A stretch of 64,000 nt of DNA from Woeseiaceae bacterium (GCA_965601785.1 OZ271838.1:3698916-3762915); one strand, 5' to 3'. Positions 43,094-59,609 are shown, counted from the first letter of the stretch. Made by a program: numbers and translations. Notes: a model not told the origin generated them from the letters alone.

Positions 43094-44542
43094 CTAGAAG
43101 CGGAACGAGACCTCGAACTCAAACTGGCTCATCGTGAGATCGATCGTCTGGGTGGGATCGAAGAAGCTCGGTCCCGAGACCGTGTTCTCCGGTGCGTACA
43201 TGAACGAGAAGTTCCACGCGCCGCCGTTCTCACGCATGCGCGTGTAGCCGAACGTAATGTGCTGCTCGATGACACCGGGTGCCAGGATATTGAACAGCAC
43301 GTCGGCGGCCTGGATCGGCTGCTCGCCGTAGCTGTAGCCGAAGCGGAATATGTTGTCCTGGCTCTGCATCCACTCGAAGCCGAGCTTGTAGGTCGTCATG
43401 TCTTCCCAGCCGAAGCCGGCACCGTTGTTGCCGCCAAGGCAGCTTTCGAGGTCTGTCCCGCCGAACGGCAGCCCCGGGCAACCCTGCATGTTGACCATCG
43501 GGTTGGCGATCGCCTTGATGTCGCTGTAGGTGGTGTGCTCGATATCGAAGTTGATGCGCAGCGCTTCGGTTGCGATGACCGACAGCCCTGCCTTGATGCT
43601 GGAGGGTATGTTGAACCCACCCGCTTCGGCAAAGAGATCCGAGTACTTGCTGAACTCCTCCATCTCCATCTCGGTCTGGTAAGCGAGGCCGAGACTGACA
43701 CGGTCGGTGATACCCCACCAAAGACCCAGCGCGAGGCCATAGCCAAAGGACGTATCGTCGCCGTTGTTGCTCAGCGACGTAGGATTCGCACCGCACTGCT
43801 GCGTCGCCGGATCGAATCCGTCCACGCAGGTTTTCGTAATAGGAATAAACGTCGGCGATGTACCCTTGGCTTCAAACATCTGGAATGCGAGGACCGGGCC
43901 GATGCCGAAGGCAAAATTTTCGCCGACTTTCGCCGAGTAGTTGATCGCAAGAAATGCCTGGGACAGGTTGACGCCTGTGACGCCGGCGCAATACGGGCCC
44001 TGCCCCGTTGCCGGTGGCTCGCCCGCAAAGGGGTTTCCACCACAGAGATAGGAAGTTGCTGTCGAGTTGACGTCATCCCAATCCGTGTTCATACCGCCGC
44101 GGCCGTAGAAGGCAGCCGTGATGTTGCCATCGTTGGCGAGACTCCAGTTCTTGGCCACGTAAGGGATCGGGAAGAACTCGCTGCTGCTGTCGATCTTGCC
44201 TGGCGTGATCGTGTGTGACGGCAGACAGAGGTCTGGACTGGTCGGGCTGCAGCCGCCAAGATCGATCACACCGCCGTTTAACTGGCTCTGGCCGGCCGTG
44301 AAACTCCGACGCGGACTGAAGATCGACAGGCCGATCTCCCACTTGTCGCTAACGAACGCGCCGAGCGCCGGGTTGGTCGCCGACATGATGGCGCCCATAT
44401 CGGCATTCGAGCCAACGCCCGTACCTGCCATACCTTTTGACTGTGTACCGACGCCGTGTGTGAAATAGCCGTTGGTTGCGAATGCCGGCGTAGCGACGGC
44501 CAGTGCAACGGCGACCGCCGAGGCCTGAAGTCCTCTCTTCAT
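43094..44542 (-). CDS. FadL/OmpP1 family outer-membrane transport channel
   Basis: Signal peptide MKRGLQASAVAVALAVATPAFA, beta-barrel-like composition, and a C-terminal ...VSFRF. ATG at 44542. Confidence 0.7.
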   Translation of the reverse strand: MKRGLQASAVAVALAVATPAFATNGYFTHGVGTQSKGMAGTGVGSNADMGAIMSATNPALGAFVSDKWEIGLSIFSPRRSFTAGQSQLNGGVIDLGGCSPTSPDLCLPSHTITPGKIDSSSEFFPIPYVAKNWSLANDGNITAAFYGRGGMNTDWDDVNSTATSYLCGGNPFAGEPPATGQGPYCAGVTGVNLSQAFLAINYSAKVGENFAFGIGPVLAFQMFEAKGTSPTFIPITKTCVDGFDPATQQCGANPTSLSNNGDDTSFGYGLALGLWWGITDRVSLGLAYQTEMEMEEFSKYSDLFAEAGGFNIPSSIKAGLSVIATEALRINFDIEHTTYSDIKAIANPMVNMQGCPGLPFGGTDLESCLGGNNGAGFGWEDMTTYKLGFEWMQSQDNIFRFGYSYGEQPIQAADVLFNILAPGVIEQHITFGYTRMRENGGAWNFSFMYAPENTVSGPSFFDPTQTIDLTMSQFEFEVSFRF

Positions 44543-44626
44543 TACGTTTCCCCCAGTGGCGGCACCTGTCGGCACCGCGTGTCAGTGGCAGCGCGGTCTC
44601 CCCACCGTGCTACCTGTTCCTAAAAC

Positions 44627-44977
44627 TCAGTCTTCCTGCTCCGCCCTGCCGCAATAAAGATCGTGCAGGGTTTGCATAACGGCAGTCGCTTCGTCCCCGG
44701 AGAGCGAGTAACTCACCGACTGCGCGTGCTTGCGTGACTTGACGATCTTCTCGCGACGCAGCACAGCGAGATGCTGCGACAGCGCAGACTGGCTCAGGCC
44801 GAGAATCGCCTGCAGTTCGCTGACGGTCTTCTCGCCTTCCGAGAGCTGGCAGAGAATCATCAACCGCCACTCGTTCGCCATGGCCTTGAGCAGGTCGCAG
44901 GCATGCGCCGCCATGTCGTGCAGCTCGGTGAGCTTGCGAAAATCCGTCGATCTTGCTGTGTCGTCCGGCTTTGCCAT
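44627..44977 (-). CDS. ArsR/SmtB family transcriptional regulator (sHdrR-like by context)
   Basis: 116 aa with a winged HTH (ELQAILGLSQSALSQHLAVLRREKIV). Cys residues in AHACD, ILCQL and DLYCG. Starts 40 nt downstream of lbpA on the same strand. Confidence 0.8.
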   Translation of the reverse strand: MAKPDDTARSTDFRKLTELHDMAAHACDLLKAMANEWRLMILCQLSEGEKTVSELQAILGLSQSALSQHLAVLRREKIVKSRKHAQSVSYSLSGDEATAVMQTLHDLYCGRAEQED

Positions 44978-45017
44978 TACAGGTCCCTTGCGTGGTTGTC
45001 CGACGCTGCGGCGAGCC

Positions 45018-45458
45018 TTACGCGCAGCCTGCAAACCCTTCCGAGTCCATCTTCGCCTCGTAGGGCGACGTTACGTCGGCGCCGATCACCAGCGAACCTT
45101 TCACTGAATCCCAGTCCTCCGGTTTCAGTATGACGAGCCATCCGGCATCGTACGGGTCGTCGTTGGCGATTGCCGGATTGGCAACGAGATCGTCGTTGAC
45201 AGCCACGACTTCCCCGCCGGCCAGCGATTTCGCAGGACCGACCCACTTGCCAGACTCGAGCGTGCCGCAGGACTTGCCGGCGCGGACCGATCTCCCTACA
45301 CGCTTTGGCGTATAGGCAACGAGCTTGCCGGCCATGGCCGTTGCGACGGCGGTCATGCCGAGTTTGACCGTGCCGTCGCCCTGTTCCTGGAACCAGATGT
45401 GATTGTCGACGTCGTAGAGCAGTTCGTCGGGCAGATTGCAGCCGCGTACAGATGGCAT
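45018..45458 (-). CDS. lbpA: Lipoate-binding protein LbpA (GcvH-fold)
   Basis: 146 aa from the ATG at 45458, with a GcvH-like fold and the lipoyl-lysine context GTLESGKWVGP. No gcvT or gcvP nearby; it is embedded in the hdr-like cluster. Confidence 0.85.
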   Translation of the reverse strand: MPSVRGCNLPDELLYDVDNHIWFQEQGDGTVKLGMTAVATAMAGKLVAYTPKRVGRSVRAGKSCGTLESGKWVGPAKSLAGGEVVAVNDDLVANPAIANDDPYDAGWLVILKPEDWDSVKGSLVIGADVTSPYEAKMDSEGFAGCA

Positions 45459-45460
45459 GG

Positions 45461-45907
45461 TCAGGACTCCTTTCTTGTCGAGGGGTCGGCATCGGCCCCG
45501 AGCCGGACCGGCTTCGAGGAGCAACAGAACTCGCCGAGTCCAGCCACTTCCAGCTTGCCGGATATGAATAAAAACAGATGGTTGCACACCACTCGCATCA
45601 TCTCGGCACGATGCGCGGTATCCGCATGCCCGGGCTCGAGCGTGATCAGATTGTAGTGGTAGGCGATCTCGCGGCAGGTCTCGCGGCAAGCGTTGAAGCT
45701 CGGCTCACCTTTCGCCCCCTGCCGATGCAGTGCGAGCAGGCGAAAGCCTTCGCGCGTGTCGCGCGTCGGTTCCTCGCCGCGCGTCTCGATAATCCAGTGT
45801 TCGAGCACCGTCTCCGACAGCGCCAGCAACGCGTCGGCCGCAGCCCCGGGATCCACCGTAGTGTCCACGGCCTCGATCGCGGCGCCGAGTTCCGAAAGCG
45901 ATTTCAT
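45461..45907 (-). CDS. Hypothetical Cys-rich protein, translationally coupled between shdrB2 and lbpA
   Basis: 148 aa. ATGA overlap with the shdrB2 stop, and its own stop is 2 nt before the lbpA ATG. Five Cys, including CRETC (CX3C) and a C-terminal FCC. Confidence 0.6.
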   Translation of the reverse strand: MKSLSELGAAIEAVDTTVDPGAAADALLALSETVLEHWIIETRGEEPTRDTREGFRLLALHRQGAKGEPSFNACRETCREIAYHYNLITLEPGHADTAHRAEMMRVVCNHLFLFISGKLEVAGLGEFCCSSKPVRLGADADPSTRKES

Positions 45908-46851
45908 GCGATGCCCTTCTCGCGCAGGAGCGGCTTCGAGTCAGACAGGTTCTCGTGCAGGCCGACCTTCCGCGACGACAGTCCCAGCGCCATGCCGATA
46001 AGCTGCGTGAAGTAGACAATCTTGACGTCGACCTTCTCGCCGAGGACCTTCTCGGCACGTATCTGGTGCATCTCGAGCCCGGAATGGCAGGTGGGGCATT
46101 CGGTAGCAATCACCTCGGCGCCCGAGAGCTTCGCGGCCTTGAGAATGTTGAGCACGAGCTTCGTCGACGTGTCGCTGTCGGACAGCGTATGCGCGCCGCC
46201 GCAGCAGGCTGTCTTCAGCGGGAACTCGACGTTCTCCGCGCCGGCGGCCGCGAGCAGGTCGTCCATGAAGTGGGGCTTGGCGGTCGACTCGCTGCCGGGT
46301 CCCTGGTCCTTCTCGGGGAAGATGTGCCGGGGCCGCGTGTACATACAGCCATAGTAGTTGGCGACCTTCAGACCCTTGAGCGAGTTCTTCACGCGCTCCT
46401 TGAGCCCGTCTTCGCCTATCGTGTCCTTGATCCAGTCGAGCGCATGGATCGTTTCGACCTGTCCGGACTCGTAGGCCTTGTGGCCGGCCTTCTTCGAGAG
46501 CTTGTCGACCGTCTCGACCGAGGCAGCATCGTTCTCGAGGTCGTACTCCGCCTTCTTGAGGTTGTGGTAGCAGCCGTTGCACGGCGCCATCACGACGTCC
46601 ATGTCCATCTCGTTGGCGGCTACCGACATGACCCTCGATGACAGGTAGGTCTGCAGCTTGGGGTCGATGTTCTTGACCTCCATGGCGCCGCAGCAATTCC
46701 AGTTCTTGACCTCGACGAGGTCGAGCCCGAGCGCCTTGCCCACAGCCTTGGTCGAGCGGTTGTAGGCGTGTCCCGTACCCTCGAGCGCGCAGCCGGGGTA
46801 GTAGGCAACGCGCTGGTACTTGTCCTTCTTGTCCTTGACGGGTGTGTCCAT
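45904..46851 (-). CDS. shdrB2: sHdrB2, heterodisulfide reductase subunit B-like (two CCG domains)
   Basis: 315 aa from the ATG at 46851. YYPGCALEG ... NCCGA and YYGCMY ... ACCGG cysteine-rich CCG motifs. Confidence 0.85.
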   Translation of the reverse strand: MDTPVKDKKDKYQRVAYYPGCALEGTGHAYNRSTKAVGKALGLDLVEVKNWNCCGAMEVKNIDPKLQTYLSSRVMSVAANEMDMDVVMAPCNGCYHNLKKAEYDLENDAASVETVDKLSKKAGHKAYESGQVETIHALDWIKDTIGEDGLKERVKNSLKGLKVANYYGCMYTRPRHIFPEKDQGPGSESTAKPHFMDDLLAAAGAENVEFPLKTACCGGAHTLSDSDTSTKLVLNILKAAKLSGAEVIATECPTCHSGLEMHQIRAEKVLGEKVDVKIVYFTQLIGMALGLSSRKVGLHENLSDSKPLLREKGIA

Positions 46852-46852
46852 G

Positions 46853-47617
46853 TCAGGCCACCTCCTTTTCCGGGCGCTTGGCGAGAGCCGCAAGATTGAG
46901 GGCCTCGGTATGGTGTTCGCGCTGCTCGTCGATGTACTCCTGCATTGCGTCCCTCGCTTTCGACCAGTTGCTGGTCCGCGGCGCAACGAACGACGCCAGC
47001 CCCATGCGAATCAACAGACCCGTGGGCAAGCCGCGCAGCATCTTTTTGACCATCTCGATCATCCAGTCCTGGAACAGGCTCTGGCCGGTCCTCGAAAAGA
47101 ACCGACGAATCGTGCGGCTCTCCTCGATCTTGCCGGTGGCGAGGATCTGCTCCGTGAAGACCTCGTCGAAGTGCATCGACGGCGACTTCGGCGTGTGCCC
47201 GCGGAGCTCGAGCCAGTGCGACGTTGCCTTCATGACGCCCTCGGGGAAGACGTCGCGCGGGCAGGCATAGGTGCACTTGTTGCAGGATACGCACTGCCAG
47301 ATGATGTCCTTGTCGCGCAGGAGCTCGGACTCCATGCCCATGCGGATCAGGTAGATCCAGTAGCGCGGATTGAAGTCCGGGTTGATGGCGTTGACCGTGC
47401 ACGAGTTCGTGCAGGAACCGCACTGCCAGCAGCGATGGATATTCTCGCCGCCCGGCAGCGACGCGATTTCGTCTTCCAGCGCCTCGTTGTAGTCGCTTAC
47501 AACACGCGACTCGATGAACGTACTCCAGTGCCCCGAGACGTCGACTCCGTCGATCACGAGTTCATCGTGAGTCTTGAGGTTTTCCGGGCGGATCAGCGAT
47601 TTTTCATGGATCGGCAT
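46853..47617 (-). CDS. shdrC2: sHdrC2, heterodisulfide reductase subunit C-like ferredoxin
   Basis: Two [4Fe-4S] motifs: CWQCGSCTNSC and CVSCNKCTYACP. Confidence 0.85.
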   Translation of the reverse strand: MPIHEKSLIRPENLKTHDELVIDGVDVSGHWSTFIESRVVSDYNEALEDEIASLPGGENIHRCWQCGSCTNSCTVNAINPDFNPRYWIYLIRMGMESELLRDKDIIWQCVSCNKCTYACPRDVFPEGVMKATSHWLELRGHTPKSPSMHFDEVFTEQILATGKIEESRTIRRFFSRTGQSLFQDWMIEMVKKMLRGLPTGLLIRMGLASFVAPRTSNWSKARDAMQEYIDEQREHHTEALNLAALAKRPEKEVA

Positions 47618-48474
47618 TAGTCGGCTTTCTCGCTCAGTAGTGGCGCATCGTCGATGACGAAGGCCTCGCCATCGATGGATTTCAGGCGCGTCTTGCCGCT
47701 GCCCGGCTGGACGCCGTCCAGTCCGAGAAGTCGGCGCGTGTGTTGCATCGGGTCTTCGGGTGCCGAGAAGTCGGCACGGAGGTAGCTACCGCCCTGCTCG
47801 CAAATGTAGTTCGCATAGACCTGGGCGCAGAGCATGTCGGCGTACTGCAGGATGTCGCGGAAGAACCCGTTGTCACTCAGGAACTGGCTCAGCTCCTCGC
47901 GCAGCATCAGGAAGGTCCCGTAGCCGTCGCCAACGGGAATCGTCAGCGCATCGATATCGCCGTCGGTGTGCCAGATCTCGCGCAGCACGCCCGTATTCGC
48001 ACGCGCGTCCCACACCCAGCGGTTCATGATCGGGTAGCGCTCGGGCTCGACGTTGTGCAGGAGCTCGGTGGCAAGGTCGCGCACCCAGCGATGCTTCTTG
48101 TCACGCGGGAAACGCTCGACGAAGACCGTGACGCGCTGGTCGACGGGTTCGACATCGTCGAAGAGGGCCGGCATCGCATCGGCGATACGGTAGAAAGAGG
48201 CCTCATCGAGCCAGGGCGCTACGCGGCGGCGCACGGTCGCCATGAAGGTACAGAGCCCTTTGAAGGACTCGATGCCGACGCGCTCGGGACCGTCTTTGAA
48301 GGCTTCCTGGAACATGGCGCTCTTGAGCTTGATCGCGTCTGCGTAGCGTTCGACGCCGCCATGCTCCTCGGCGCCCTGCACCATTTGCTCCAGCGCGGCG
48401 CGGAGCGCCTGCCCGTCGAGGTCGAGTACCGGGCGCTCGATGTCCTTGGGTTTGACGGCGAACAGGGAAGCCAT
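47617..48474 (-). CDS. shdrH: sHdrH-position conserved hypothetical protein
   Basis: 285 aa from the ATG at 48474, 4 nt after the shdrA stop. TAATG overlap with shdrC2. Its position matches the hyp gene of shdrC1B1A-hyp-C2B2 clusters. No cofactor motif seen. Confidence 0.6.
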   Translation of the reverse strand: MASLFAVKPKDIERPVLDLDGQALRAALEQMVQGAEEHGGVERYADAIKLKSAMFQEAFKDGPERVGIESFKGLCTFMATVRRRVAPWLDEASFYRIADAMPALFDDVEPVDQRVTVFVERFPRDKKHRWVRDLATELLHNVEPERYPIMNRWVWDARANTGVLREIWHTDGDIDALTIPVGDGYGTFLMLREELSQFLSDNGFFRDILQYADMLCAQVYANYICEQGGSYLRADFSAPEDPMQHTRRLLGLDGVQPGSGKTRLKSIDGEAFVIDDAPLLSEKAD

Positions 48475-48478
48475 GGCC

Positions 48479-49537
48479 TCAGGCAGACTCGGCGATAGCG
48501 CTCTCAGCCTCACGGCTGGCAGAAAGCACCGCCATGGCGGCCGCGTGACCCTGCGCGATCGAATCGTCGATCGTCTCGGGACCCGTAGCGGAACCCGCCA
48601 CGTAGACGCCCGGGCGCGAGGTCTCACCCATGGCGCCGTAGCGATTCGCGGCGTCGATGTAGCCGTGCTGTTCGAGATCGATACCAAAGGTGCCGGCGAT
48701 GTCCCGGTTGTCGACATTCGGGTCCATGCCAATCGCGTGCACGACCATGTCGAACGGAATCGTGATCGGTCGCTTCACGAGTGTATCTTCGCCCTTGACG
48801 ATGAGCTTCTCGCCGTCGGACGTGACTTCCGCGATGCGCGCCTTGATGTACTTGACCTTGAACTCTTCCTGGCTGCGCCAGTAGTACTTGGTCTCGTATA
48901 GCCCGAAGGTACGGATGTCCATGTAGTAGATATAGACATGGCAGTCCGGCAGCTCCTCGCGAATCTCCATGGCCATGTTCGCAGACACGGTGCAGCAGAT
49001 CTTCGAGCACCACTCCCGGCCGATCTGCCGGTCGCGCGAACCGACGCAGAGCAGGATCGCGACACGCTCGGGCTTGCGGCCGTCAGAGGGACAGCGCACG
49101 CCCTGTCCCGAGGAGATCATCTGTTCGACCTGGGTCGTCGTAACGACGTCAGGGAAGGTGCCGAAGCCCCACTCCGGCTTGTTGACCGAGTCGAAGTGTG
49201 TGAAACCGCTGCAGAGTATCGCCGCTTCCGCCTCGAGGCTCTCACCGTTGGACAGCTTTGCCTCGAAGTCGCCCGGTGAGCCGTCGAACTGCGTGACCGT
49301 GGCGCCGGTGACAACCTTGACGTGGGGATTTCCTTCGACGCGGTCCACCATGCCGCCAATGGCATCCTTCGCCCATTCGCCCGAGGGTACGAGCTTGGCG
49401 TAGCCCGACAGGATCGGCGCGCCGCCGAGGCGGTCTTCCTTCTCGACGATGACGCAGTCCTTGCCGACAGTGGCGAGGCTGTGTGCGGCGGCGAGTCCGG
49501 CGGGTCCGCCACCGAGGATCAGTACCGGCTTGCTCAT
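48479..49537 (-). CDS. shdrA: sHdrA, short HdrA-like FAD/[4Fe-4S] flavoprotein
   Basis: 352 aa with ILGGGPAGLAAA dinucleotide-binding motif and Cys cluster CVGSRD...CSKICC. ATGA overlap with shdrB1. Confidence 0.85.
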   Translation of the reverse strand: MSKPVLILGGGPAGLAAAHSLATVGKDCVIVEKEDRLGGAPILSGYAKLVPSGEWAKDAIGGMVDRVEGNPHVKVVTGATVTQFDGSPGDFEAKLSNGESLEAEAAILCSGFTHFDSVNKPEWGFGTFPDVVTTTQVEQMISSGQGVRCPSDGRKPERVAILLCVGSRDRQIGREWCSKICCTVSANMAMEIREELPDCHVYIYYMDIRTFGLYETKYYWRSQEEFKVKYIKARIAEVTSDGEKLIVKGEDTLVKRPITIPFDMVVHAIGMDPNVDNRDIAGTFGIDLEQHGYIDAANRYGAMGETSRPGVYVAGSATGPETIDDSIAQGHAAAMAVLSASREAESAIAESA

Positions 49538-50892
49538 TTCGGGCCCTCCACGGCACGGAAGCCCGGACCGGAGGTAATCATCTTGCGCGGATCGTAGAGC
49601 GTCTCGCCCCGGCCGGCCTCGACTTCCTTGAGATAGTCTTCGAACTCCGCCTTCTTCGCCTGCCAGTCGATACCGAGTTTCTCCATTAGCGACTCGGTCG
49701 ACGAGGCGTGCCAGTGTGACTGCACGATCTTATAGGGATGCGCGCCGCACACGAGCGCTGCGAACTGGACGTCGGCGAGCACGGGCAGGTCGACCGGCTT
49801 GCCGGCCGCGGCGCCGATCCACTGGTTCTTGTCGAGCGTCGTGATGCAGCCCGTGTCGTGGCCAACCATCATGTCGGCACGCGCCTCTTCCTGGGCGACG
49901 CGAATCTTGCGATCGATCGCGAAAGACCGCGTGAATTCGCGCTCGGAGATGATGTGCCGGAACCCGAAGCCGCAGCAGTCGTACCAGGTCGAGTAGTCGA
50001 TCACCTGGGTACCCAGCGCCTCCATCAAGCCGGTCGTCACCGCGACGCGGTTGCCCTCGAGGATGTCGTCGTCGTAAATCGCATCCTCGGGCACCATCTT
50101 GTAGACATGGCAGGCCGGGTGCACGGTCGCACGAATGTGGCTGCAGTCGATGACCTGGCGCTTCTTGATCTCGTGGCGCATGACGTGCAGCCACTCGGAG
50201 TAGTGCACGACCTCCTCGGGAATGAGCAGCTTGCCGTCGACGAGCCGGCCGAGCTTGCCGAGGATGGTCTTCATACGCTCGCGCAGCTTGGCGGACTGGA
50301 TCAGGTAGCCGCGCACTTCCTTGTAATTGCCGAAGGAGGTACCGCAGTGCACAAGCGGGTAGTAATACGATTCCGGCAGACCCTGCGCCTTGGCGGCGAC
50401 GTAGGCCTGGTGGAAGTTACGCAGGAACACGGCCGCGAGGCTCTCGATGTTGCCGATACCCGAGCCGTGGTAGTTCCAGGCCGTGCAGGAGGTCTGGTCG
50501 GTCTCGTCGAGGTACTCGATGCCCATCTCGTTCATGAGCCAGAGTAGGGACGCCGGGTAGCCCGGGATGTTGCCGCACTGTCCGCAGGACTTGTGATGCC
50601 AGAGGCGCGTGGTCGGGATCTTCTTGTCCCAGCCGTACAGCGTCTTGACCATGACGGGTTCGTGCTCGTCGCTGACGCGATGCACGACGATCTCGCCGTC
50701 CTTCTCCAGCTCCCACATGGCATCGCGAACATCTTCGACGCGATCCTTGTTAGTCAGCATGGACCGCTTGTTGATGATCTGGTCGACCCAGACCGTCGCG
50801 ACGTGGGCATCTTCCTTGCTGAGGTTAGCGTCCTGCCATTCGGCGCCATGGCCGGTAAAGCGCTCGCCGTCGTTGCCGTTACCGTGGTTCAT
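49534..50892 (-). CDS. shdrB1: sHdrB1, heterodisulfide reductase subunit B-like
   Basis: 452 aa with Cys motifs HKSCGQCGN and YDCCGFGFRH (CCG domain). Confidence 0.85.
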   Translation of the reverse strand: MNHGNGNDGERFTGHGAEWQDANLSKEDAHVATVWVDQIINKRSMLTNKDRVEDVRDAMWELEKDGEIVVHRVSDEHEPVMVKTLYGWDKKIPTTRLWHHKSCGQCGNIPGYPASLLWLMNEMGIEYLDETDQTSCTAWNYHGSGIGNIESLAAVFLRNFHQAYVAAKAQGLPESYYYPLVHCGTSFGNYKEVRGYLIQSAKLRERMKTILGKLGRLVDGKLLIPEEVVHYSEWLHVMRHEIKKRQVIDCSHIRATVHPACHVYKMVPEDAIYDDDILEGNRVAVTTGLMEALGTQVIDYSTWYDCCGFGFRHIISEREFTRSFAIDRKIRVAQEEARADMMVGHDTGCITTLDKNQWIGAAAGKPVDLPVLADVQFAALVCGAHPYKIVQSHWHASSTESLMEKLGIDWQAKKAEFEDYLKEVEAGRGETLYDPRKMITSGPGFRAVEGPK

Positions 50893-50948
50893 CGTTGTAC
50901 TCCTGGTGTCACCGGGCAGGCGCGCCGAGACGCCACCTGCGCAAGTTC

Positions 50949-51692
50949 TCAGTCGTCCTGCTCGTCGAGGAAGTCCTCATAGTCGTCGCGCTTCTCGTCC
51001 ATGATGTCGCTGATGACGTCGAACAGGTTTTCGTCAATGGTCTCAAGGCTGTCGAGCACACCGGTCTCTTCCCAGATCGTGTAGAGCTCGACGGATGTCT
51101 TGAGGTTGACCTCCCACGCCGTCTTGGTCGTGTGCAGCGTGGGCATCGGGATAGCCTTGCGCAGCGTCGTAAGCGGCGCATCGACTTTCGAGATATTCGG
51201 CCCCCAGTCCGCGAAACCCTCGGGGTTAATCATGTCGGGCGACAGCTGGTTGCCCGTGGAAATCAGCTTGAGCATGACGCGGCTGAAGGGCCTCAGCACG
51301 CTTTTCGCGGATTCCATGCCGTGCTTGATCGCGGTCTCGCGCATAAGCATGACGAGCCCGCCCGGCGAGTTGCCGAAGGGACAGCGCGCAGCGCAGGTGT
51401 AGCACTGCGCACAGGACCAGATCTTCTCCTGCATCGCATCGTGGATGCCTTCGAGGTTCTCGGTCCACAGCAGCTGCACGATCTCGCGCGGGCTGAAGTC
51501 GTAGTAATGCGCCGCGGGGCAGGTTGCCGTACAGATACCGCAGTTCAGGCAGCCGTTGAGTTCGTGGTCAAAACGCAGGTCGGCCTGGATGTCCTGGAAG
51601 ATCTCTTCGAGTTGTTCACGATCGACCGGCGGCGAATCCGACACCGGATCGCCCATAACGTGTTGAACTCGGCTGGTGGCGGAATGCGACAT
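50949..51692 (-). CDS. shdrC1: sHdrC1, heterodisulfide reductase subunit C-like ferredoxin
   Basis: Two [4Fe-4S] motifs: CLNCGICTATCP and CAQCYTCAARCP. Confidence 0.85.
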   Translation of the reverse strand: MSHSATSRVQHVMGDPVSDSPPVDREQLEEIFQDIQADLRFDHELNGCLNCGICTATCPAAHYYDFSPREIVQLLWTENLEGIHDAMQEKIWSCAQCYTCAARCPFGNSPGGLVMLMRETAIKHGMESAKSVLRPFSRVMLKLISTGNQLSPDMINPEGFADWGPNISKVDAPLTTLRKAIPMPTLHTTKTAWEVNLKTSVELYTIWEETGVLDSLETIDENLFDVISDIMDEKRDDYEDFLDEQDD

Positions 51693-51714
51693 GGTCTTGG
51701 TCCTCTCTGTGCGC

Positions 51715-52092
51715 CTAGTAGGACAGGACCCTGCAGTCGCCTTCCATGACCTCTTCGATCAGGTGGGCGCCACCGACTATGCCTTCGCATTCGGGGATCA
51801 GGTCGTCCTTGGTCATATCGAACAGGTCGAGGTTCGGCGAGCAGCAGAAGAACTTGACGCCGGCCTCGTGGGCATCCTGGATGAAGCTGTAGACGCTCTT
51901 CGGCGACCCTTCCTTGACGAACAGGGTCTCGGCGACGCCTTTCTTCATCAGGCGGCCGGACGTTGCGGTGCAGATGACGTCGACGTCGTAGTCCATGGCG
52001 GCGGCAACCGTCGCCTGGAAAATCGGCGCTCCGAGCTCCTCGCCGTTACGCGGGTCGGTATTCGCCATGACGATAATGAGTTTCTCAGCCAT
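51715..52092 (-). CDS. dsrE3: DsrE3-family sulfurtransferase (DsrE/DsrF fold)
   Basis: 125 aa with a DsrE-like fold and conserved Cys in FFCCSPN. GGAGAGAGGG SD. First gene of the shdr transcription unit. Confidence 0.75.
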   Translation of the reverse strand: MAEKLIIVMANTDPRNGEELGAPIFQATVAAAMDYDVDVICTATSGRLMKKGVAETLFVKEGSPKSVYSFIQDAHEAGVKFFCCSPNLDLFDMTKDDLIPECEGIVGGAHLIEEVMEGDCRVLSY

Positions 52093-52134: not shown

Positions 52135-52161
52135 ACAGTTAATTAGCATATACTAAATTAC

Positions 52162-52893
52162 TCAAGTATCCAAACCGCCGACACCCGCATCGAGCGCCTT
52201 CGGCGTTGACATAAGCGCCGTGCGCTGCACGAGCCCGGTCATGATCGGCACCAGCTCATCCTCGAGCCGGGGCTGCAAACCGCGGAGTACCTCGAGCTTC
52301 GCCGGCGCATCGTCGGGCACCTCTTCGAACTCCATGACGAGGTCCTCGATCATCCCCAGTTTGATACCGGGATTGCCGGCGAATCCATACGCATTTTCGC
52401 CAACTTGAAAGACTGCGGGCTCCCCGGCCGCGTCGACCGCCAGCACAGTCGCGTCGGAGGGCGGCACCGCTCGATCGCGCATGTAGGTCACCTGGCAGAA
52501 GGTCTCGGGCAGGAAACCGTTGAGCGCGTCGTCCCGCGTGCGCGTCGCCTCGCCAATATCGAACGCGAGCGGCGTCGGCGCAGAGCCGCCACCGGCTGCT
52601 ATCGCAAGTATCTGGGCGCCGAGGCCGAAGCCGACGACGGGGGTCCCTTCCTCGAGCCGCTGCCGGGTAAGCTCGACCTCGCGATCGAGCGTCGGCAGGT
52701 CGCGACCGCCCGCCGAGCCCCATGGACCGCCTCCAAGCAGGAACAGCGCGTCGGCTGGCAGCTCCGCCTCCGGCAGGCTGCCGGCCGCGAACGGCCGGAA
52801 ATACTGGAATCGAATCCGGCGACCCTCGAGATGATCTTCCATTAGCCCCAGGTACTCGCCGGACGTATGCTGGATTACCGCCACGACGTTCAT
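52162..52893 (-). CDS. Class-I glutamine-amidotransferase-fold protein lacking the Cys-His-Glu triad
   Basis: 243 aa from the ATG at 52893. GATase1-like layout, but the nucleophile elbow reads GFGLGAQ (canonical G-x-C-x-G-H-Q) and the HPE position reads GNPG. Confidence 0.6.
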   Translation of the reverse strand: MNVVAVIQHTSGEYLGLMEDHLEGRRIRFQYFRPFAAGSLPEAELPADALFLLGGGPWGSAGGRDLPTLDREVELTRQRLEEGTPVVGFGLGAQILAIAAGGGSAPTPLAFDIGEATRTRDDALNGFLPETFCQVTYMRDRAVPPSDATVLAVDAAGEPAVFQVGENAYGFAGNPGIKLGMIEDLVMEFEEVPDDAPAKLEVLRGLQPRLEDELVPIMTGLVQRTALMSTPKALDAGVGGLDT

Positions 52894-52945
52894 TGCGGCG
52901 CCCTCGCGACGGGCGAGCTTGAACGCGTCGTCGGCCTTGCTGCAC

Positions 52946-54022
52946 TCAGCCACGACGGTCAGCAGCCAGCGCGCTGTCGATCGCGGCAATGAAGTCGGAC
53001 GGCAGTACGCTCAGGGTATCGGTCGGGTGCGCATCGAAGAACGCCTCAATGGCGGCGGCGTATTCGTCGAGTCCGGCGCCGGCGAGATGCGCCTCGAGAT
53101 CGAGCACGAAGCGCGGTGGCGTTACGAAGAAGTCGCCGGTAAACAGCACGCGCTGCAGCAGCCTGCGCGGCGGGCTCTCGAGTTTCAGGTAAGCATCGAT
53201 CGTGCCGCCGGCACTCGTATGGCTACCGGCGAGGAAGCCGCTGTCATCCCTGACGTTATCGATCTCGAACAGGAACTCGTCCTTGCCGATCTCCTCGTCG
53301 AAGCAGTGGCTCGCGAGGCCTTCTTCCTGCTCAGTGATCTCGCCCGGACTCGCCTCGATGCCGAGCCTCTCGGTCAGGCCCTTAACGACCGCCGCCTTGA
53401 CCGCGTCGAGATCCGGCATATCGTCGCCCAGGAGGTCGCGGAGACTCACGACACGATCCGCCGCCGAACCGAGCTCGCGCTTCGCGAGCTTGCTGTCGGG
53501 TACGCGCAGGGCTTTGACCATCCGGTCGGCGTCGAAATCGACGAGCACCGTGCCCTGGTAGATCAGCACGTCGCCGTCGTAGAAGCCGCCCGTGCCGCTG
53601 ATCTTGCGGCCGTCCACCTCGATGTCGTTGCGCGGTCGAAAGCGGGCGTCGATACCCAGCGTGGACAGCCCGGCGGCGACCGCGTTACAGATCTCTCTTG
53701 CCACGTCGGGCAGCTTGGCGACCCCCAGCGCGGAGCGGTGGAAAACGAGTTCCCAGCCGAGCTGGCTCTCGTCGAGATAAATCGCGCCGCCGCCCGTGAT
53801 GCGGCGGACGAGACCAATGCCATTCGCCTCGCAGTACAGCCTGTTGACCTCGAGGCTCAGGTCCTGGTGGCGACCCACGAGGACCGTCGGCGGAAAGCGC
53901 AGGAAGCGAATCGTGTCGGGCACGAGGTTCTGCTGGCGCGCCTCGATCAGCGCGGCATCGAACGCGATATTCGCGCGGCCCTCGCGGACGCCGGTATCGA
54001 TGATCCGGAACGGGTCACCCAT
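52946..54022 (-). CDS. slpl(AB): Lipoate-protein ligase, sLpl(AB) type
   Basis: 358 aa with LplA motifs RRITGGGAIYLD and VDGRKISGTG. A C-terminal accessory domain is fused. It lies in the cluster with lbpA. Confidence 0.85.
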   Translation of the reverse strand: MGDPFRIIDTGVREGRANIAFDAALIEARQQNLVPDTIRFLRFPPTVLVGRHQDLSLEVNRLYCEANGIGLVRRITGGGAIYLDESQLGWELVFHRSALGVAKLPDVAREICNAVAAGLSTLGIDARFRPRNDIEVDGRKISGTGGFYDGDVLIYQGTVLVDFDADRMVKALRVPDSKLAKRELGSAADRVVSLRDLLGDDMPDLDAVKAAVVKGLTERLGIEASPGEITEQEEGLASHCFDEEIGKDEFLFEIDNVRDDSGFLAGSHTSAGGTIDAYLKLESPPRRLLQRVLFTGDFFVTPPRFVLDLEAHLAGAGLDEYAAAIEAFFDAHPTDTLSVLPSDFIAAIDSALAADRRG

Positions 54023-54034
54023 CAGCTGGCTGCC

Positions 54035-55285
54035 CTATTCGACGGTAACCGGGATGTCGAGCTGCCGGCGAATCTTCTTCAGGTCCTTCTTGCCCGGCTG
54101 GAATGGATAGCTCGCGATATCGCTTGGCGGTGAGTCGCCGTAGGGGCGATCACAGGCCGAGATGTCCTCCCGGACCTTGCCGGGGCAGCCTGACGTGCGG
54201 AACGCCACGCCCTCGGCGATGACGGCATCGAGTTCCGCCGCCGGTATGCCGAAGTCGGTCACCCTGCCCTGTTCATCGAAGCGCATATGGTCGACGCGCA
54301 CGTCGCGGTAATCGATGAGGTAGCGGGCGAGCTGCACGCGCCGCCACTGGTCGCGCGGCGTCGCAGGCAGATGGTCCATCAGGGAACCGTCTTCAGGGAA
54401 GAAACAGAACATATGGCTGTGGCCGCCAAGGTCGACGAGGCGCTGTACGAGCGTCAGCACTTCGTGTTCGGTTTCGCCCATGCCGACGATGATGTGGGCG
54501 CCAAACTTCTCGGGCCCGAAAATATCCGCTGCATCCTCGAGGATTTCCCAGTACTTCGACCACTTGTGTGGCGACTGCACACCCTTGCCGCGCGTGCGGT
54601 CGAATACCTCAGGAGTCGCGGCATCGAGGGCAACCGTGAAGATATCGGCACCGAGATCACGCGTCTTCTGGACGTCCTCGCGAGTCATCGTCGTCGGATT
54701 GGAGAGGATCGATACCGGTATCTCGTGCGGTTCGATGCGATCGGTCCACTGCTTGAGCACCGTGAAGGTGTCGTCTTCCGATCGCGGGTGCGTGATCATC
54801 GAGATGCACATGCGATGGAAAGGACTCGACGCCGGATCCTTTGCCACGATGTCGATGATCTGGGACATCGGCACGGCGGGCCAGTCGACGCGAATAAAGT
54901 TCCGGTCCGCGTAATCGCGATCCGCCTCGCGGTGGCGGGCGAGGCCACAGTAGGCGCAGTTGGCGCGACAGCCCTCAGGATAGGTCAGGAGCAGATTCAG
55001 GCAACGCGTGCACTCGCAGCCGTACATCTTGCCGCCCATGATGCCGAGCGTAATCGCGGCGGCCGTCGACAGCTGTACGTACTCGGGCGACTTCATGTGC
55101 GGCGCCAGTATGTTGTTGTTGGGCAGGTAGACACCTTCGGGCGGAATGTCGTTTGCCTTGACGTGCTTGCCGTTCCGGCGCTCGGCGGGTGTACGCTCGG
55201 GGCTTCGCGGCTGCATGGCGCCGAACGCATTGAAATCGACGCTGCTCTCTTCGGCGGGGCTCTTTTTCTGCTCGATACAACTCAT
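54035..55285 (-). CDS. Radical SAM protein, LipS1/LipS2-type lipoyl synthase component
   Basis: 416 aa with a CX3CX2C motif (CRANCAYC) preceded by an extra CECTRC Cys cluster. I cannot assign it to S1 or S2 by eye. Confidence 0.7.
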   Translation of the reverse strand: MSCIEQKKSPAEESSVDFNAFGAMQPRSPERTPAERRNGKHVKANDIPPEGVYLPNNNILAPHMKSPEYVQLSTAAAITLGIMGGKMYGCECTRCLNLLLTYPEGCRANCAYCGLARHREADRDYADRNFIRVDWPAVPMSQIIDIVAKDPASSPFHRMCISMITHPRSEDDTFTVLKQWTDRIEPHEIPVSILSNPTTMTREDVQKTRDLGADIFTVALDAATPEVFDRTRGKGVQSPHKWSKYWEILEDAADIFGPEKFGAHIIVGMGETEHEVLTLVQRLVDLGGHSHMFCFFPEDGSLMDHLPATPRDQWRRVQLARYLIDYRDVRVDHMRFDEQGRVTDFGIPAAELDAVIAEGVAFRTSGCPGKVREDISACDRPYGDSPPSDIASYPFQPGKKDLKKIRRQLDIPVTVE

Positions 55286-55302
55286 GATCGATTACTCACA
55301 GG

Positions 55303-56340
55303 TCAGGCCGCGCAGGAACGCGCGATCGTTGGAGAGGCGTCGCTGCCCAGCTTGATCGAGCAGCAGGAGTGGGCCTGTACGAAAGGCCGGCCGATTTCGT
55401 GTGCGACCGAGACAGCGCCATCGGCCGGGAACGCGATACCGTCGAGCCCGGCCATAATCGCGTAGGCATCGGTCACGCGCTTGTGCATACCCGGCGGCCT
55501 GGCGCAGCCGAGCAGTACCTGCTTGTCGGCAAGCCGCTGCCGCGCCTCGCCGAAGATACGGCCCACATCGCCCGTCGACGGCGTAACGAAGGTGCCGGGC
55601 TTCGCGTAGAACGGCATGATGACGACGAGCACCAGCGCGGTCACCGGGTAGCGGCTGACGATATCGAGTGCGCGGGACTCGCCGAGGATGCGCCCGTAGT
55701 GCAGGCCGACGACGATGTGCGGCGTCACTTCCATGCCCGTGCTGCACAGTGCCGCGAGCGTCGACTCGAAGTCTTCTACCGGCCGATCGAGCTTGTAGAC
55801 CTCGCGGATCGTGTCGTCGTGACCGATCACATCCATCATGACCGTATCGACGCCTGCCGACTCCATGGCCTTCGCGCGTTGCTCGTCAAGGAGTGCACTG
55901 TGGATGGCGACGCTGAGATCCGGAAAATCCCGCTTCAGACCCTCGACGACCGGCAGGAAACGACCGTAGTTGATCTCGTTCTTGCGATTCGAGCCGCCGG
56001 ACAGGAGGAAGCCCTTTAGGCCGTCGCTCTCGATCAGCGCCCGGACCTTTGCATCAAGCATCTCCGGGTTTGTCGCCGGGATCATTGGCTCGAGGATCTT
56101 CTTCTGGCAATGATCGCAGTTGAGTCCGCACTCGCCCGCCGTAATCGAGAACGCGGGAAAGCTGTTCTTGCCGCAACCCTTGAGTTCACTCGAGGCGTAC
56201 TCCTTGAAGGTTGGGGTAGAGAAACGGACAGGGCGTTCGCGGACCCGATCGGCGCGCGACTCGAACTCGGCCACGAGGCCCTCGTCGAACTCCGCATCCT
56301 CGAGATCCTCGATATGTTTAAGCGCGTCAAGCCAGGTCAT
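55303..56340 (-). CDS. Radical SAM protein, LipS1/LipS2-type lipoyl synthase component
   Basis: 345 aa with a CX3CX2C motif (CGLNCDHC) and C-terminal Cys (HSCCS). 17 nt from the next radical SAM gene. Confidence 0.7.
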   Translation of the reverse strand: MTWLDALKHIEDLEDAEFDEGLVAEFESRADRVRERPVRFSTPTFKEYASSELKGCGKNSFPAFSITAGECGLNCDHCQKKILEPMIPATNPEMLDAKVRALIESDGLKGFLLSGGSNRKNEINYGRFLPVVEGLKRDFPDLSVAIHSALLDEQRAKAMESAGVDTVMMDVIGHDDTIREVYKLDRPVEDFESTLAALCSTGMEVTPHIVVGLHYGRILGESRALDIVSRYPVTALVLVVIMPFYAKPGTFVTPSTGDVGRIFGEARQRLADKQVLLGCARPPGMHKRVTDAYAIMAGLDGIAFPADGAVSVAHEIGRPFVQAHSCCSIKLGSDASPTIARSCAA

Positions 56341-56375
56341 TGTGTGACTCCCCCCGAGTCGTCCGGCGAATCGGC

Positions 56376-57548
56376 CTACGGCCGGTTCGAATCAACCAGT
56401 GTTTGTATCGTGTCCCTGACGGGTCCTGTATACGGTGTATCCGCAATGCGCCTGAGCCACGCCGGATCGCGCTCGTCTTCGTCGACGAGTTCGCAGTCCA
56501 TCGCGGCGAGGATTTCCACAGCATCGGCCGGCAGCGAATCGGGAATGGGACAATGCGCAAGCAACGCCCAGAGACCGGCCCAGTATCGCGTCAGCGTCCA
56601 CGGGTTATAGCCGCCGCCGCCGAGCACGACCGTCGGCAGGCCAAGATTTACCAGTCGGTCGACCGTTGACCATAGCGCGACGTTCGTGAGCTGCATCGCC
56701 GACAAGGGATCGCCGGCCAGGCAGTCGGCCCCACAGCAGATCACGAGCGCATCGGCGTGACGCTGGTCGATGACCGGCATCACGACCCTGTCGATGAGGA
56801 AATGCAGCTCGCTGTCGATCAGGCCGCGCGGCACGGGCAGGTTGTATACCCCGCGACCAGGGTCGGACGCGGTGCCTGTATGCGGCCAGCGGTCTGCCTC
56901 GTGAATCGAGATCGTGGTCACGGCATCGTCATCGACAAAGGCCGCCTCGACGCCGTCCCCGTGGTGCGCGTCGAGATCGACGTAGGCCACGCGCCGCGCA
57001 CCGTCGTCGGCCAGCGTACGAATCGCGAACACCGGGTCGTTGAAATAACAGAAGCCACAGGCACGATCCGGCCGGCCATGGTGGGTACCGCCCGACGGAT
57101 GGAATGCCACGCCGCCATCAAGCGCAAGGCGCGCCGCTTCTATGGAGCCTTGCACCGTCGCAGCGGCCCGCGCGAATACGCCTGGAAACAGTGGATTCTC
57201 CAGGGTTCCGAAGTGGTAGCGCTCGCGCTCGGCCCGCGCGACCGACCCTACGGTGTCTGCGTATTGCAGCGCCTCGATGTAGTCAAGATCATGAAACCGG
57301 GAAAGCGTCTCGCTCGGGGCGGGGCCGACCGCGCATGTGTCTGCATCACCGAGCCAGCCCATGGCCCGGGCGAGGTCGCGGACGGCGCTGTGCCGGATGA
57401 TCGCAAGCGGGTGGTTTCCCGGGAAAGCGGGTTTGCCGAACAGCTCGCTCGTAATGAAAGCGGCGTGTCGCGCCTGGGCAGCGACAAGTCCGTGGTCACG
57501 GGCGTGCTGCTGGTTTTCGAGGGGCCGCTGCATCGGGACCGGGAACAC
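56376..57548 (-). CDS. Histone-deacetylase/AcuC-fold Zn-dependent deacylase
   Basis: HDAC signatures are intact: SGGTHHG (His-His), GFCYFND, DLDAHHGDG (metal ligands), GGGGYN (catalytic Tyr). Start uncertain: GTG at 57548 or ATG at 57533. Confidence 0.8.
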   Translation of the reverse strand: MFPVPMQRPLENQQHARDHGLVAAQARHAAFITSELFGKPAFPGNHPLAIIRHSAVRDLARAMGWLGDADTCAVGPAPSETLSRFHDLDYIEALQYADTVGSVARAERERYHFGTLENPLFPGVFARAAATVQGSIEAARLALDGGVAFHPSGGTHHGRPDRACGFCYFNDPVFAIRTLADDGARRVAYVDLDAHHGDGVEAAFVDDDAVTTISIHEADRWPHTGTASDPGRGVYNLPVPRGLIDSELHFLIDRVVMPVIDQRHADALVICCGADCLAGDPLSAMQLTNVALWSTVDRLVNLGLPTVVLGGGGYNPWTLTRYWAGLWALLAHCPIPDSLPADAVEILAAMDCELVDEDERDPAWLRRIADTPYTGPVRDTIQTLVDSNRP

Positions 57549-57630
57549 CCTGGACTGGTTGAAATGCCGTAGTCAGAGTATTCCATACCGCTAATAAAGA
57601 CAATTATGATATTCTAATATTCAGAGAGAT

Positions 57631-57645: not shown

Positions 57646-57659
57646 GGAGGGGAACCACA

Positions 57660-58211
57660 ATGGCCAGTGAAGCATCGGCCGTGACGTCCGACATGCAGAC
57701 GTCCGCGGACCAGGCGCCCGTAGCGGCGCCCGAAACCAAGAGCATGTCCATCATTGTTACCAAAGGCTCGCTCGACTGGGCGTATCCGCCGTTTATTCTT
57801 GGCACCACTGCCGCAGCAATGGGCTTGCCGGTGACAATGTTCTTCACCTTTTACGGGCTGCCGCTGCTCCTGAAAAAGCTCGACCTTAAGCTTACGGCTG
57901 CCGGCAACCCCGCAATGAAGATGCCTATGATGGGCGCGCACGTCGGCCTGCCGAATCTCCTGACGGCGGTCCCGGGCGTCGACGCCGCCTGCTCGACGAT
58001 GATGAAGAACCTCATGAACAAGAAAGGCGTTGCCTCGATCGAGGACCTCAGGGAACTCGCCGTGGACGCAGAAGTTCGCATGATCGCGTGCCAGATGACG
58101 ATGGACCTCTTCGAGTACTCCCTCGACGACATGATCGAGGGAATCGAACTCGGCGGAGCGGCCACCTACATCGAGTGCGCCACGCAAGCCGATATCAACC
58201 TGTTCATCTAG
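57660..58211 (+). CDS. DsrE2/COG2210-like DsrE-fold sulfur-relay protein
   Basis: 183 aa with a GGGAGGGG SD, a hydrophobic segment (PPFILGTTAAAMGLPVTMFFTFYGL) and conserved Cys in IACQMTMDLF. Adjacent to tusA. Confidence 0.65.
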   Translation: MASEASAVTSDMQTSADQAPVAAPETKSMSIIVTKGSLDWAYPPFILGTTAAAMGLPVTMFFTFYGLPLLLKKLDLKLTAAGNPAMKMPMMGAHVGLPNLLTAVPGVDAACSTMMKNLMNKKGVASIEDLRELAVDAEVRMIACQMTMDLFEYSLDDMIEGIELGGAATYIECATQADINLFI

Positions 58212-58228
58212 CCGGGGGAGGCAAGACC

Positions 58229-59600: not shown

Positions 59601-59609
59601 GAGCACACG

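Follow-up and report, generated by a model that had tools for sequence, protein, structure and literature searches.

Results

A 64,000-nucleotide stretch of DNA from a Woeseiaceae bacterium (GCA_965601785.1, OZ271838.1:3698916–3762915; hereafter, the window) very probably carries a functional type I sHdr-LbpA module. This system, named for its heterodisulfide-reductase-like proteins of sulfur oxidation (sHdr) and its lipoate-binding protein (LbpA), would convert protein-bound sulfane sulfur to sulfite in the cytoplasm of this Woeseiaceae-like gammaproteobacterium. Its genes lie in a sulfur island of ~18 kb (43.1–61.3 kb of the window). What the sequence shows is the gene content and order, the motifs, an orthologous sHdrA, conservation of the lysine and of the cysteines, and a synteny and an operator-like dyad that are likewise conserved; the sulfur flow, the subunit roles, and the regulator-operator pairing are drawn from the literature.

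Organization and conservation of the locus

The core of the island consists of ten open reading frames (ORFs), all in one direction on the minus strand and spanning positions 44627–52092, in the order dsrE3C-shdrC1-B1-A-H-C2-B2-shdrI(orf148)-lbpA-shdrR. Domains were called with Pfam and NCBIfam profile scans, and motif positions were read from the translations. The original prediction, made from the sequence of the window, had described ten co-directional genes with ATGA and TAATG overlaps and short junctions, and reading the sequence bore this out. The pairs shdrB1/shdrA and shdrB2/orf148 are joined by ATGA overlaps and shdrH/shdrC2 by TAATG. The other junctions measure 22 nucleotides (nt) between dsrE3 and shdrC1, 56 nt between shdrC1 and shdrB1 (the widest among the ten genes), 4 nt between shdrA and shdrH, 1 nt between shdrC2 and shdrB2, 2 nt between orf148 and lbpA, and 40 nt between lbpA and the arsR-type regulator gene, counted to ATG 44977. 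The likeliest starts, set against the longest ORFs, are 48474 for shdrH and 46851 for shdrB2 (not the upstream TTG codons) and 45458 for lbpA. The regulator most likely begins at ATG 44977, giving 116 amino acids (aa), and not at TTG 45034, a start that would create an overlap with lbpA. In agreement with the original prediction, none of the ten proteins has a signal-peptide-like N terminus. The highest Kyte-Doolittle 12-mer in the set scores 1.7 and belongs to a Rossmann strand of sHdrA, compared with 2.8 for exported SorB, a control from the same window.

In the HMSS2/Dahl-lab definition, type I systems have the order shdrC1B1AHC2B2 in one syntenic cluster (PMC11094781, PMC11582611). The locus has exactly this published order, followed by lbpA, in agreement with the original prediction. 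The shdrC2 and shdrB2 genes are separate, rather than fused as the sHdrB3 that accompanies etfAB-emo in type II, and no Etf or EMO genes or domains were found at the locus.

Relatives were collected by an sHdrA scan of one genome per GTDB species. This returned >544 related stretches, of which the best 80 were analyzed. Most of these 80 are Woeseiaceae and unclassified Gammaproteobacteria metagenome-assembled genomes (MAGs) with 85–90% sHdrA identity (~90% for the nearest GTDB representative), followed by 'Lysobacterales', Burkholderiales, Rhodospirillales, Hyphomicrobiales, and Sphingomonadales. When 19 window proteins were compared with the related loci by tblastn, the modal order was yeiH/dsrE2 / HDAC-lipS1-lipS2-slpl(AB)-lipX-dsrE3C-shdrC1B1AHC2B2-orf148-lbpA-arsR-porin, an arrangement seen in ~60 genomes of Woeseiaceae and other proteobacteria. 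Essentially all loci of sufficient length, across gamma-, beta-, and alphaproteobacteria, have a collinear core. Chance is far from accounting for the arrangement; nearly all 80 loci, drawn from many lineages, repeat the order. The original prediction had called the ten-gene locus complete. Its core is indeed intact, but the functional unit exceeds ten genes: the full system continues through the lipoate-assembly genes, dsrE2, and tusA at 52162–58459.

Core sHdr subunits

The domains assigned in the original prediction (DsrE, two ferredoxins, two CCG proteins, a 352-aa flavoprotein, a GCV_H protein with ESGKW, and an ArsR regulator) were recovered by Pfam, NCBIfam, and motif analysis. By sequence, sHdrA is the ortholog of the crystallized sHdrA of Hyphomicrobium denitrificans (6TJR), with 76.7% identity (263/343) over residues 3–345 (E = 1e-182, 610 bits). 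The cluster ligands Cys164, Cys177, Cys181, and Cys182 are all kept. Pfam and NCBIfam scans class the protein as a flavoprotein of the pyridine-nucleotide-disulfide-oxidoreductase type. Methanogen HdrA reached ~180–190 bits, and only its thioredoxin-reductase-like core aligned (residues 316–558, against sHdrA residues 101–337). The HdrA-like protein thus groups with sHdr and not with methanogen Hdr, as had been proposed.

The two HdrB-like proteins differ in their cluster ligands. Over its full length, sHdrB2 aligns with methanogen HdrB (117 bits) and keeps all ten cluster cysteines (Cys21, 53/54, 91/94, 169, 216/217, and 252/255). Alignment of sHdrB1 to methanogen HdrB is weak (37 bits), and two cysteines of its N-terminal motif and one of its C-terminal motif are replaced. 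These substitutions fit the literature view of sHdrB1 as a divergent and proposed catalytic subunit (PMC11094781).

Two of the ten proteins had been listed as hypothetical. Neither matches a known family. One is the sHdrH of the described system and the other, by position, its sHdrI. The gene for sHdrH lies between shdrA and shdrC2 in 76/80 loci. The protein has 3552 homologs, every one unnamed; it matched no Pfam or NCBIfam family, a PDB sequence search was empty, and its AlphaFold model was poor (predicted local distance difference test [pLDDT] 52, from a 30-sequence alignment). PDB searches with the locus proteins found no sHdr subunit structure other than that of sHdrA.

A plasmid search for an annotated reference sHdr locus matched only a 47-kb Acidithiobacillus ferrooxidans plasmid, which has a lone sHdrB1-like gene and no full cluster. 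This gene encodes a protein 69% identical to sHdrB1 of the window. In the region concerned (NZ_CP082239.1, 6644–10347), it lies near GcvH-like, hemerythrin, and globin genes, hcp, and NnrS, with no other shdr genes, which places an sHdrB1/LbpA-like pair in a nitrosative-stress context.

LbpA, DsrE3C, and sHdrI

The ESGK71W motif of LbpA aligns with ESVK of E. coli GcvH, and Lys71 is in register with the lipoyl-lysine; the modifiable lysine postulated in the original prediction is therefore present. LbpA scores under both GcvH equivalog cutoffs (TIGR00527, 73 bits against a cutoff of 116), as expected for an LbpA rather than for GcvH of the housekeeping kind. A PDB match to the DsrE3 protein is 3MC3, the structure of a DsrE3A, and Cys83/Cys84 of the window protein occupy positions identical to the pair in H. 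denitrificans DsrE3C, where Cys84 is the proven sulfur-binding residue (PMC11094781). On these sequence features, we assign it as a DsrE3C-type sulfurtransferase.

The orf148 gene is probably shdrI, a name given by its position. sHdrI has been described as soluble and cytoplasmic, with a function that is not known (PMC11582611). The orf148 product has 6285 homologs, all unnamed, and its sequence found nothing in Pfam, NCBIfam, or the PDB. An AlphaFold 2 model (pLDDT 83) confidently predicts a five-helix bundle with a disordered C-terminal tail that bears a Cys-Cys pair. A Foldseek search with this model gave no significant match; the lowest E value was 0.32, and the structures returned were helical bundles of a generic or HEPN-like kind. 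Helix 4 carries the motif NAC-RET-C and the tail carries FCC(S/A)S(K/R)P, and both are invariant in loci of alpha-, beta-, and gammaproteobacteria. Speculatively, the four cysteines so conserved could form a metal or FeS site, or could serve in redox reactions or in sulfur transport.

Lipoate assembly and a linked deacylase

The genes upstream of shdr on the same strand are, from their sequences, predicted to form a dedicated LbpA maturation pathway; the name lipX and the sLpl(AB)-LipS1/S2 pathway follow PMC10332631. The lipX gene was found in 68/80 loci. The operon is headed by a gene for a Zn-dependent deacylase of the HDAC/HDLP family, which matches Aquifex aeolicus HDLP (1C3R) over its full length (E = 5e-62) and has intact HH, DxH, D, and GGGGY motifs. 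The papers examined on sHdr and on lipoate assembly make no mention of a deacetylase, and a literature search combining LipS1 and deacetylase returned nothing relevant. The deacylase gene adjoins lipS1 in 48 of the 58 loci that have both lipS1 and lipS2. Within these 48, the ~1.1-kb lipT insert between lipS1 and lipS2 is missing from 42 and present in 6, and the insert occurs in 9/9 informative loci that lack an adjacent deacylase gene. These counts are not phylogenetically independent, and the Fisher p value of 6e-7 disregards phylogeny. Strict mutual exclusion of the deacylase and lipT was rejected, as six loci carry both; there is a strong tendency instead.

From these sequence patterns, the deacylase may be an undescribed part of the LbpA cofactor system, and sHdrI, with its invariant CxxxC and the vicinal cysteine pair of its flexible tail, may likewise act with the complex in redox or sulfur chemistry, a proposal that we consider tentative and rather unlikely. 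The enzyme could be an acyl-lysine amidohydrolase in one of three roles: it might clear stray acylation from the acceptor lysine of LbpA, act as a delipoylase on damaged or over-sulfurated lipoyl groups, or release octanoate or lipoate from housekeeping lipoyl proteins and so feed sLpl(AB), which depends on the free acid. A 4HBT thioesterase (42578–43048) was considered as a source of free octanoate and dropped, being conserved in 1/80 loci.

The regulator and an operator-like dyad

The last gene of the operon encodes an ArsR-type regulator that aligns end to end with HlyU and SqrR, members of the BigR/SqrR/HlyU/SoxR group of repressors. Its Cys43 and Cys109 match the two sensing cysteines. 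sHdrR proteins are recognized by two conserved cysteines (Cys50 and Cys116 in H. denitrificans sHdrR; PMC12423496), and the regulator has both and sits at the shdr cluster.

The spacer upstream of dsrE3C is 69 nt long and forms an AT-rich island within a genome of 63% GC. It contains, on the plus strand, the near-palindrome TTAGCATATACTAA. The half-sites ATTAG and CTAAT are kept in related loci and the 6-nt spacer between them varies by lineage, which is the behavior of a protein-binding dyad. A generic sigma-70 scan flagged no promoter at the locus; the dsrE3C promoter was called from a conserved TTGGAT-17-TATGCT in the intergenic alignment of related loci. The window has two copies of the core sequence TTAGN6CTAA, where 0.06 would be expected, and ATTAG-N6-CTAAT with at most one mismatch occurs four times, each at a promoter. 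Among the related loci, 58/71 have a dyad upstream of dsrE3, and 29/42 have one between the HDAC gene and dsrE2, no more than a single mismatch being allowed there. Of the 103 dyads in 1.4 Mb of related-locus DNA, these two promoters account for 87 (58 and 29, respectively). We found no published SoxR, sHdrR, or BigR operator motif in a literature search. The two-cysteine ArsR repressor encoded at the locus is the obvious candidate to bind the dyad. From their positions, the four dyads suggest one persulfide-responsive regulon linking sulfur and hydrogen oxidation.

Unlike members of the BigR family described elsewhere, the regulator gene lies inside the shdr-lbpA operon, and its putative regulon extends to shdr, lipoate assembly, dsrE2-tusA-sorAB, and possibly a hydrogenase. 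The window shares with BigR-blh operons a Blh-type dioxygenase/TauE pair whose dyad lies between perfect -35 and -10 elements. This pair has the classic BigR-operon layout and is 42 kb from the regulator gene.

Divergent sulfur genes and the remaining window

Features of the island and related elements are listed in Table 1. The dsrE2-tusA-yeiH-sorAB genes are divergent from the lipoate-assembly operon; tusA was found in 57 related loci. For H. denitrificans, the sulfite exporters put forward are YeiH and TauE (PMC11582611). The start of the sorB-like gene overlaps the sorA stop codon (TGATG). At the other end of the island, a FadL-type porin gene follows shdrR in 44/80 loci and is a plausible candidate for the equivalent of lipY, a putative fatty-acid transporter (PMC10332631).

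Table 1. Features of the sulfur island and associated elements (window coordinates; ".", no strand assigned)
Feature	Position	Strand	Basis or remarks
Blh-type persulfide dioxygenase + TauE/SafE sulfite exporter	1560-3199	+	412 bits to dioxygenase part of NF040641
Dyad	1511-1526	.	Inside perfect TTGACA-17-TATAAT promoter of Blh-type dioxygenase
FadL/TodX-family outer-membrane channel	43094..44575	-	Pfam Toluene_X E=1.7e-11; downstream of shdrR
shdrR-type ArsR/BigR-family persulfide-sensing repressor (predicted)	44627..44977	-	116 aa; HTH_5 1.7e-15
lbpA	45018..45458	-	GcvH-like lipoate-binding protein, 146 aa; lipoyl-Lys71; GCV_H 4e-31
orf148, probably shdrI	45461..45907	-	Soluble five-helix protein; invariant NAC74RETC78 and FC128C129SSKP
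shdrB2	45904..46851	-	315 aa; CCG 4.9e-23, two stretches; two complete CCG motifs
shdrC2	46853..47617	-	Ferredoxin, 254 aa; Fer4 dicluster families; CxxCxxCxxxC at residues 63 and 109
shdrH	47617..48474	-	Conserved protein, 285 aa; placed between shdrA and shdrC2
shdrA	48479..49537	-	352-aa flavoprotein; flavin adenine dinucleotide (FAD) and one [4Fe-4S]; GGGPAG, CVGSRD...CSKICC
shdrB1	49534..50892	-	452 aa; CCG 2.7e-9; HdrB model 101 bits; degenerate CCG motifs
shdrC1	50949..51692	-	Ferredoxin, 247 aa; HdrC models 84-88 bits; CxxCxxCxxxC at residues 48 and 94
dsrE3C-type sulfurtransferase (predicted)	51715..52092	-	125 aa; DrsE_2 1.9e-11; Cys83-Cys84; next to shdrC1
Operator-like dyad ATTAG-N6-CTAAT	52142..52157	.	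Overlaps putative -10 of dsrE3C-shdr promoter
lipX	52162..52893	-	Class-I glutamine-amidotransferase-like; NCBIfam glutamine amidotransferase 61 bits
slpl(AB)	52946..54022	-	Lipoate:protein ligase; LplA-B_cat 3.5e-46; fused LplB domain, residues 287-352
lipS2	54035..55285	-	Radical-SAM lipoyl synthase; NF053743 LipS2 191 bits (cutoff 270); Radical_SAM
lipS1	55303..56340	-	Radical-SAM lipoyl synthase; NF053742 LipS1 193 bits (cutoff 230)
HDAC/HDLP-family Zn-dependent deacylase	56376..57533	-	Hist_deacetyl 3.8e-61; first gene of lip operon, 35 nt upstream of lipS1
Two degenerate dyads	57580..57618	.	Divergent HDAC/dsrE2 promoter region; second copy weaker
dsrE2 sulfur carrier	57660..58211	+	NF047629 DsrE2 218 bits, above cutoff 210
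tusA	58229..58459	+	76 aa; Cys13 in CPLP motif; Pfam TusA 9e-25
YeiH-family transporter, candidate sulfite/sulfate exporter	58545..59600	+	Cons_hypoth698 3e-68, TIGR00698; start codon inferred
sorA-type periplasmic molybdenum sulfite dehydrogenase	59601..60923	+	Oxidored_molyb, Mo-co_dimer, TAT_signal
sorB-like monohaem cytochrome c	60923..61300	+	Signal peptide, CIACH; SorB model 29.8 bits, below cutoff
Dyad, perfect copy	61348-61363	.	30 nt before hydrogenase maturation protease gene start

A [NiFe] uptake-hydrogenase operon adjoins the island at 61392–63999 on the plus strand. It begins with a HyaD/HybD-type maturation protease gene followed by that for the small subunit (TIGR00391, 431 bits), and the window ends in the next gene. 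Apart from this operon and the Blh/TauE pair, the remaining window holds unrelated housekeeping and catabolic genes. An unrelated DUF6065 gene (310 bits; 21358–22116, minus strand) and a DUF6265 gene (7152–7664, plus strand) lie among ordinary catabolic genes. No Rfam families or tRNAs were detected in the window.

Alternative explanations

CCG and Fer4 domains are common to several oxidoreductases, so that the Hdr-like proteins might instead form a non-sulfur enzyme of the LutABC, GlcF/GlpC, Flx-Hdr NADH:DsrC, or methanogen type. The top NCBIfam match of sHdrB2 is formally SdhE of methylmenaquinol:fumarate reductase (161 bits) over HdrB (148 bits), with all scores below cutoff. We nevertheless regard a non-sulfur enzyme as extremely unlikely, given an sHdrA that is orthologous to the crystallized protein and does not have the additional domains found in methanogen HdrA. 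For the B and C proteins, the GlcF and GlpC models (18–31 bits each) and the LutB model (16 bits) fall well under those for HdrB and HdrC, a contrast of scores in line with the sHdr assignment of the original prediction. No LUD/DUF162 (LutC), flxABCD, mvh, or fdh genes or domains were found at the locus, and its flanks hold sulfurtransferase, LbpA, lipoate-assembly, persulfide-sensor, and sulfite dehydrogenase genes. We also hold it very unlikely that the cluster was gained by horizontal transfer and is now decaying or silent. The closely similar sHdr layouts over alpha-, beta-, and gammaproteobacteria are consistent with lateral spread, and the modest sHdrA identity to the nearest GTDB representative also speaks for this reading. 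However, the ORFs of the locus contain no frameshifts or truncations, their lengths match those of homologs, and their start/stop overlaps are kept. The GC content of the locus (0.61–0.65) and its GC at third codon positions (GC3) resemble those of the remaining window, no mobile-element genes or tRNA border the island, and promoter and operator sequences are conserved.

A true sHdr system could also serve mainly in sulfide or persulfide detoxification, or in the degradation of organosulfur compounds (dimethyl sulfide or methanethiol via thiosulfate), in a chemoorganoheterotroph that draws supplementary electrons from it and does not grow lithotrophically. We consider this a real possibility, if not the probable one. 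H. denitrificans employs sHdr in this manner (PMC6067878, PMC12423496), and the survey of Bohai Sea sediments calls sHdr-bearing Woeseiales heterotrophic or mixotrophic sulfur oxidizers (PMC12345210). Within the window, the same dyad precedes a persulfide dioxygenase and TauE of the BigR-operon type, a detoxification module, and the remaining genes are those of ordinary heterotrophic metabolism. On the other hand, the neighboring [NiFe] uptake-hydrogenase operon, with its perfect dyad, suggests a co-regulated lithotrophy island, and carbon-fixation genes elsewhere in the genome would lie outside the view of the window.

Several observations count against the assignment of a functional module, or against parts of it. 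The functional reading is drawn from sequence and literature, and the identities of sHdrB1, B2, C1, C2, and H come from domains, motifs, position, and synteny rather than from an sHdr-specific profile or tree. The LipS1 and LipS2 models are the sole strong matches for their respective genes, yet both score below their equivalog cutoffs. SorA also falls below its equivalog cutoff (241 bits against 600), and the regulator does not reach the cutoff of the BigR model (80.7 bits against 155). Its pairing with the dyad was made on proximity. A tblastn search with lipT sequences of related loci found no lipT in the 64-kb window, and LipT is thought to supply electrons to LipS1/S2; this FAD oxidoreductase is found in ~53% of bacteria with LipS1/S2 and so is not universal (PMC10332631). 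Finally, sox, sqr, and sulfur-import genes are not in the window, and the source of sulfane sulfur is thus not visible.

Discussion

A type I sHdr-LbpA module remains the explanation that we favor, and a scheme for its operation can be modeled on the literature for H. denitrificans, Thioalkalivibrio, and Aquifex. Incoming cytoplasmic sulfane sulfur would travel as a cysteine persulfide via DsrE2, DsrE3C (Cys84), and TusA and would be passed to lipoylated LbpA and/or straight to the sHdr complex, whose predicted stoichiometry in the literature is sHdrAA'B1B2C1C2. In such a complex, the sulfur would be oxidized to sulfite at the non-cubane clusters of sHdrB1/B2. The oxidizing site is proposed to be sHdrB1, whose CCG sites are variant, and the LbpA dithiolane is proposed to be reduced by sHdrB2, whose two non-cubane [4Fe-4S] sites are canonical and which would thus act as a disulfide reductase. 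sHdrC1 and sHdrC2 would relay electrons onward to sHdrA with its FAD and [4Fe-4S] cluster. Sulfite could leave through the adjacent YeiH-type transporter, a candidate exporter, and then be oxidized by periplasmic SorAB. For the maturation of LbpA, sLpl(AB) would ligate octanoate or lipoate and LipS1/LipS2 would insert sulfur, with LipX and the FadL-type porin in putative accessory roles. The ArsR-type sHdrR would repress by binding the ATTAG-N6-CTAAT dyads over the promoters, and a sulfane-sulfur bridge between its two cysteines would release repression.

The closest well-studied counterpart is the lip-shdr-lbpA region of H. denitrificans (Hden_0682-0696). Both have the core dsrE3C-shdrC1B1AH-C2B2-(shdrI)-lbpA, a single LbpA with a lipoyl-lysine, the DsrE3C Cys83/Cys84 pair, adjacent slpl(AB), lipS1, lipS2, and lipX, an ArsR-type two-cysteine repressor, and YeiH and TauE as sulfite-export candidates. 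They differ in the lip operon, which in H. denitrificans reads lipS1-lipT-lipS2-slpl(AB)-lipX and here reads lipS1-lipS2-slpl(AB)-lipX, without lipT and headed by the deacylase gene. Here, too, shdrR lies at the 3' end behind lbpA and is followed by a FadL-type porin gene, dsrE2-tusA-yeiH-sorAB is attached directly, and the neighborhood is without sox genes, soxT transporters, and rhd442.

Thioalkalivibrio sp. K90mix, Acidithiobacillus, and Aquifex aeolicus share with the window the shdrC1B1AHC2B2 core, the linkage to tusA/dsrE2, LbpA, and the sLpl(AB)-LipS1/S2 maturation genes (PMC11094781, PMC10332631). The literature describes two LbpA paralogs and DsrE3A/DsrE3B in those organisms, whereas the window has one LbpA and the DsrE3C type, a pattern described for many type I Pseudomonadota. 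The likeness to methanogen HdrABC (5ODC) extends to both non-cubane CCG motifs in sHdrB2, the HdrC-like sHdrC1 and sHdrC2, and the sHdrA core, which resembles the thioredoxin-reductase-like domain of HdrA. Methanogen HdrA is a protein of ~650 aa, however, and sHdrA is without its N-terminal, inserted, and ferredoxin domains. Here, B and C subunits each occur as two copies, the ligands of sHdrB1 are altered, and there is no Mvh or Fdh partner. The genomic context is one of sulfur oxidation with a lipoate carrier, in contrast to the reduction of CoM-S-S-CoB by the methanogen enzyme.

The original prediction singled out the locus as the most valuable object in the window, which is an overstatement. 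sHdr systems are present in 397 GTDB genomes (PMC11094781), our own scan returned the many matching stretches noted above, and a published survey of Bohai Sea sediments describes sHdr in MAGs of Woeseiales, with sulfide induction at the community level (PMC12345210). The locus is a genuine, intact copy of a known system in a lineage already reported, and so is a good example rather than a discovery. It would not surprise a specialist, and it leaves the mechanistic questions no more testable than the existing genetic model does.

What the island adds are small, concrete leads: an operator kept in related loci, a deacylase linked to lipS1, and the cysteines that are invariant in sHdrI. The deacylase and sHdrI are two conserved, unexplained genes that work on model organisms has not addressed or has left as "unknown", and the conserved operator permits prediction of a regulon. 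Sulfane sulfur is converted to sulfite in the cytoplasm by two main routes, of which the sHdr-LbpA system is one, and Woeseiaceae-type bacteria are abundant in marine sediments. In this genome, carriers, enzyme, cofactor assembly, sensor, exporter, and sulfite dehydrogenase are linked within ~18 kb, which makes the region a candidate "minimal island" for heterologous expression.

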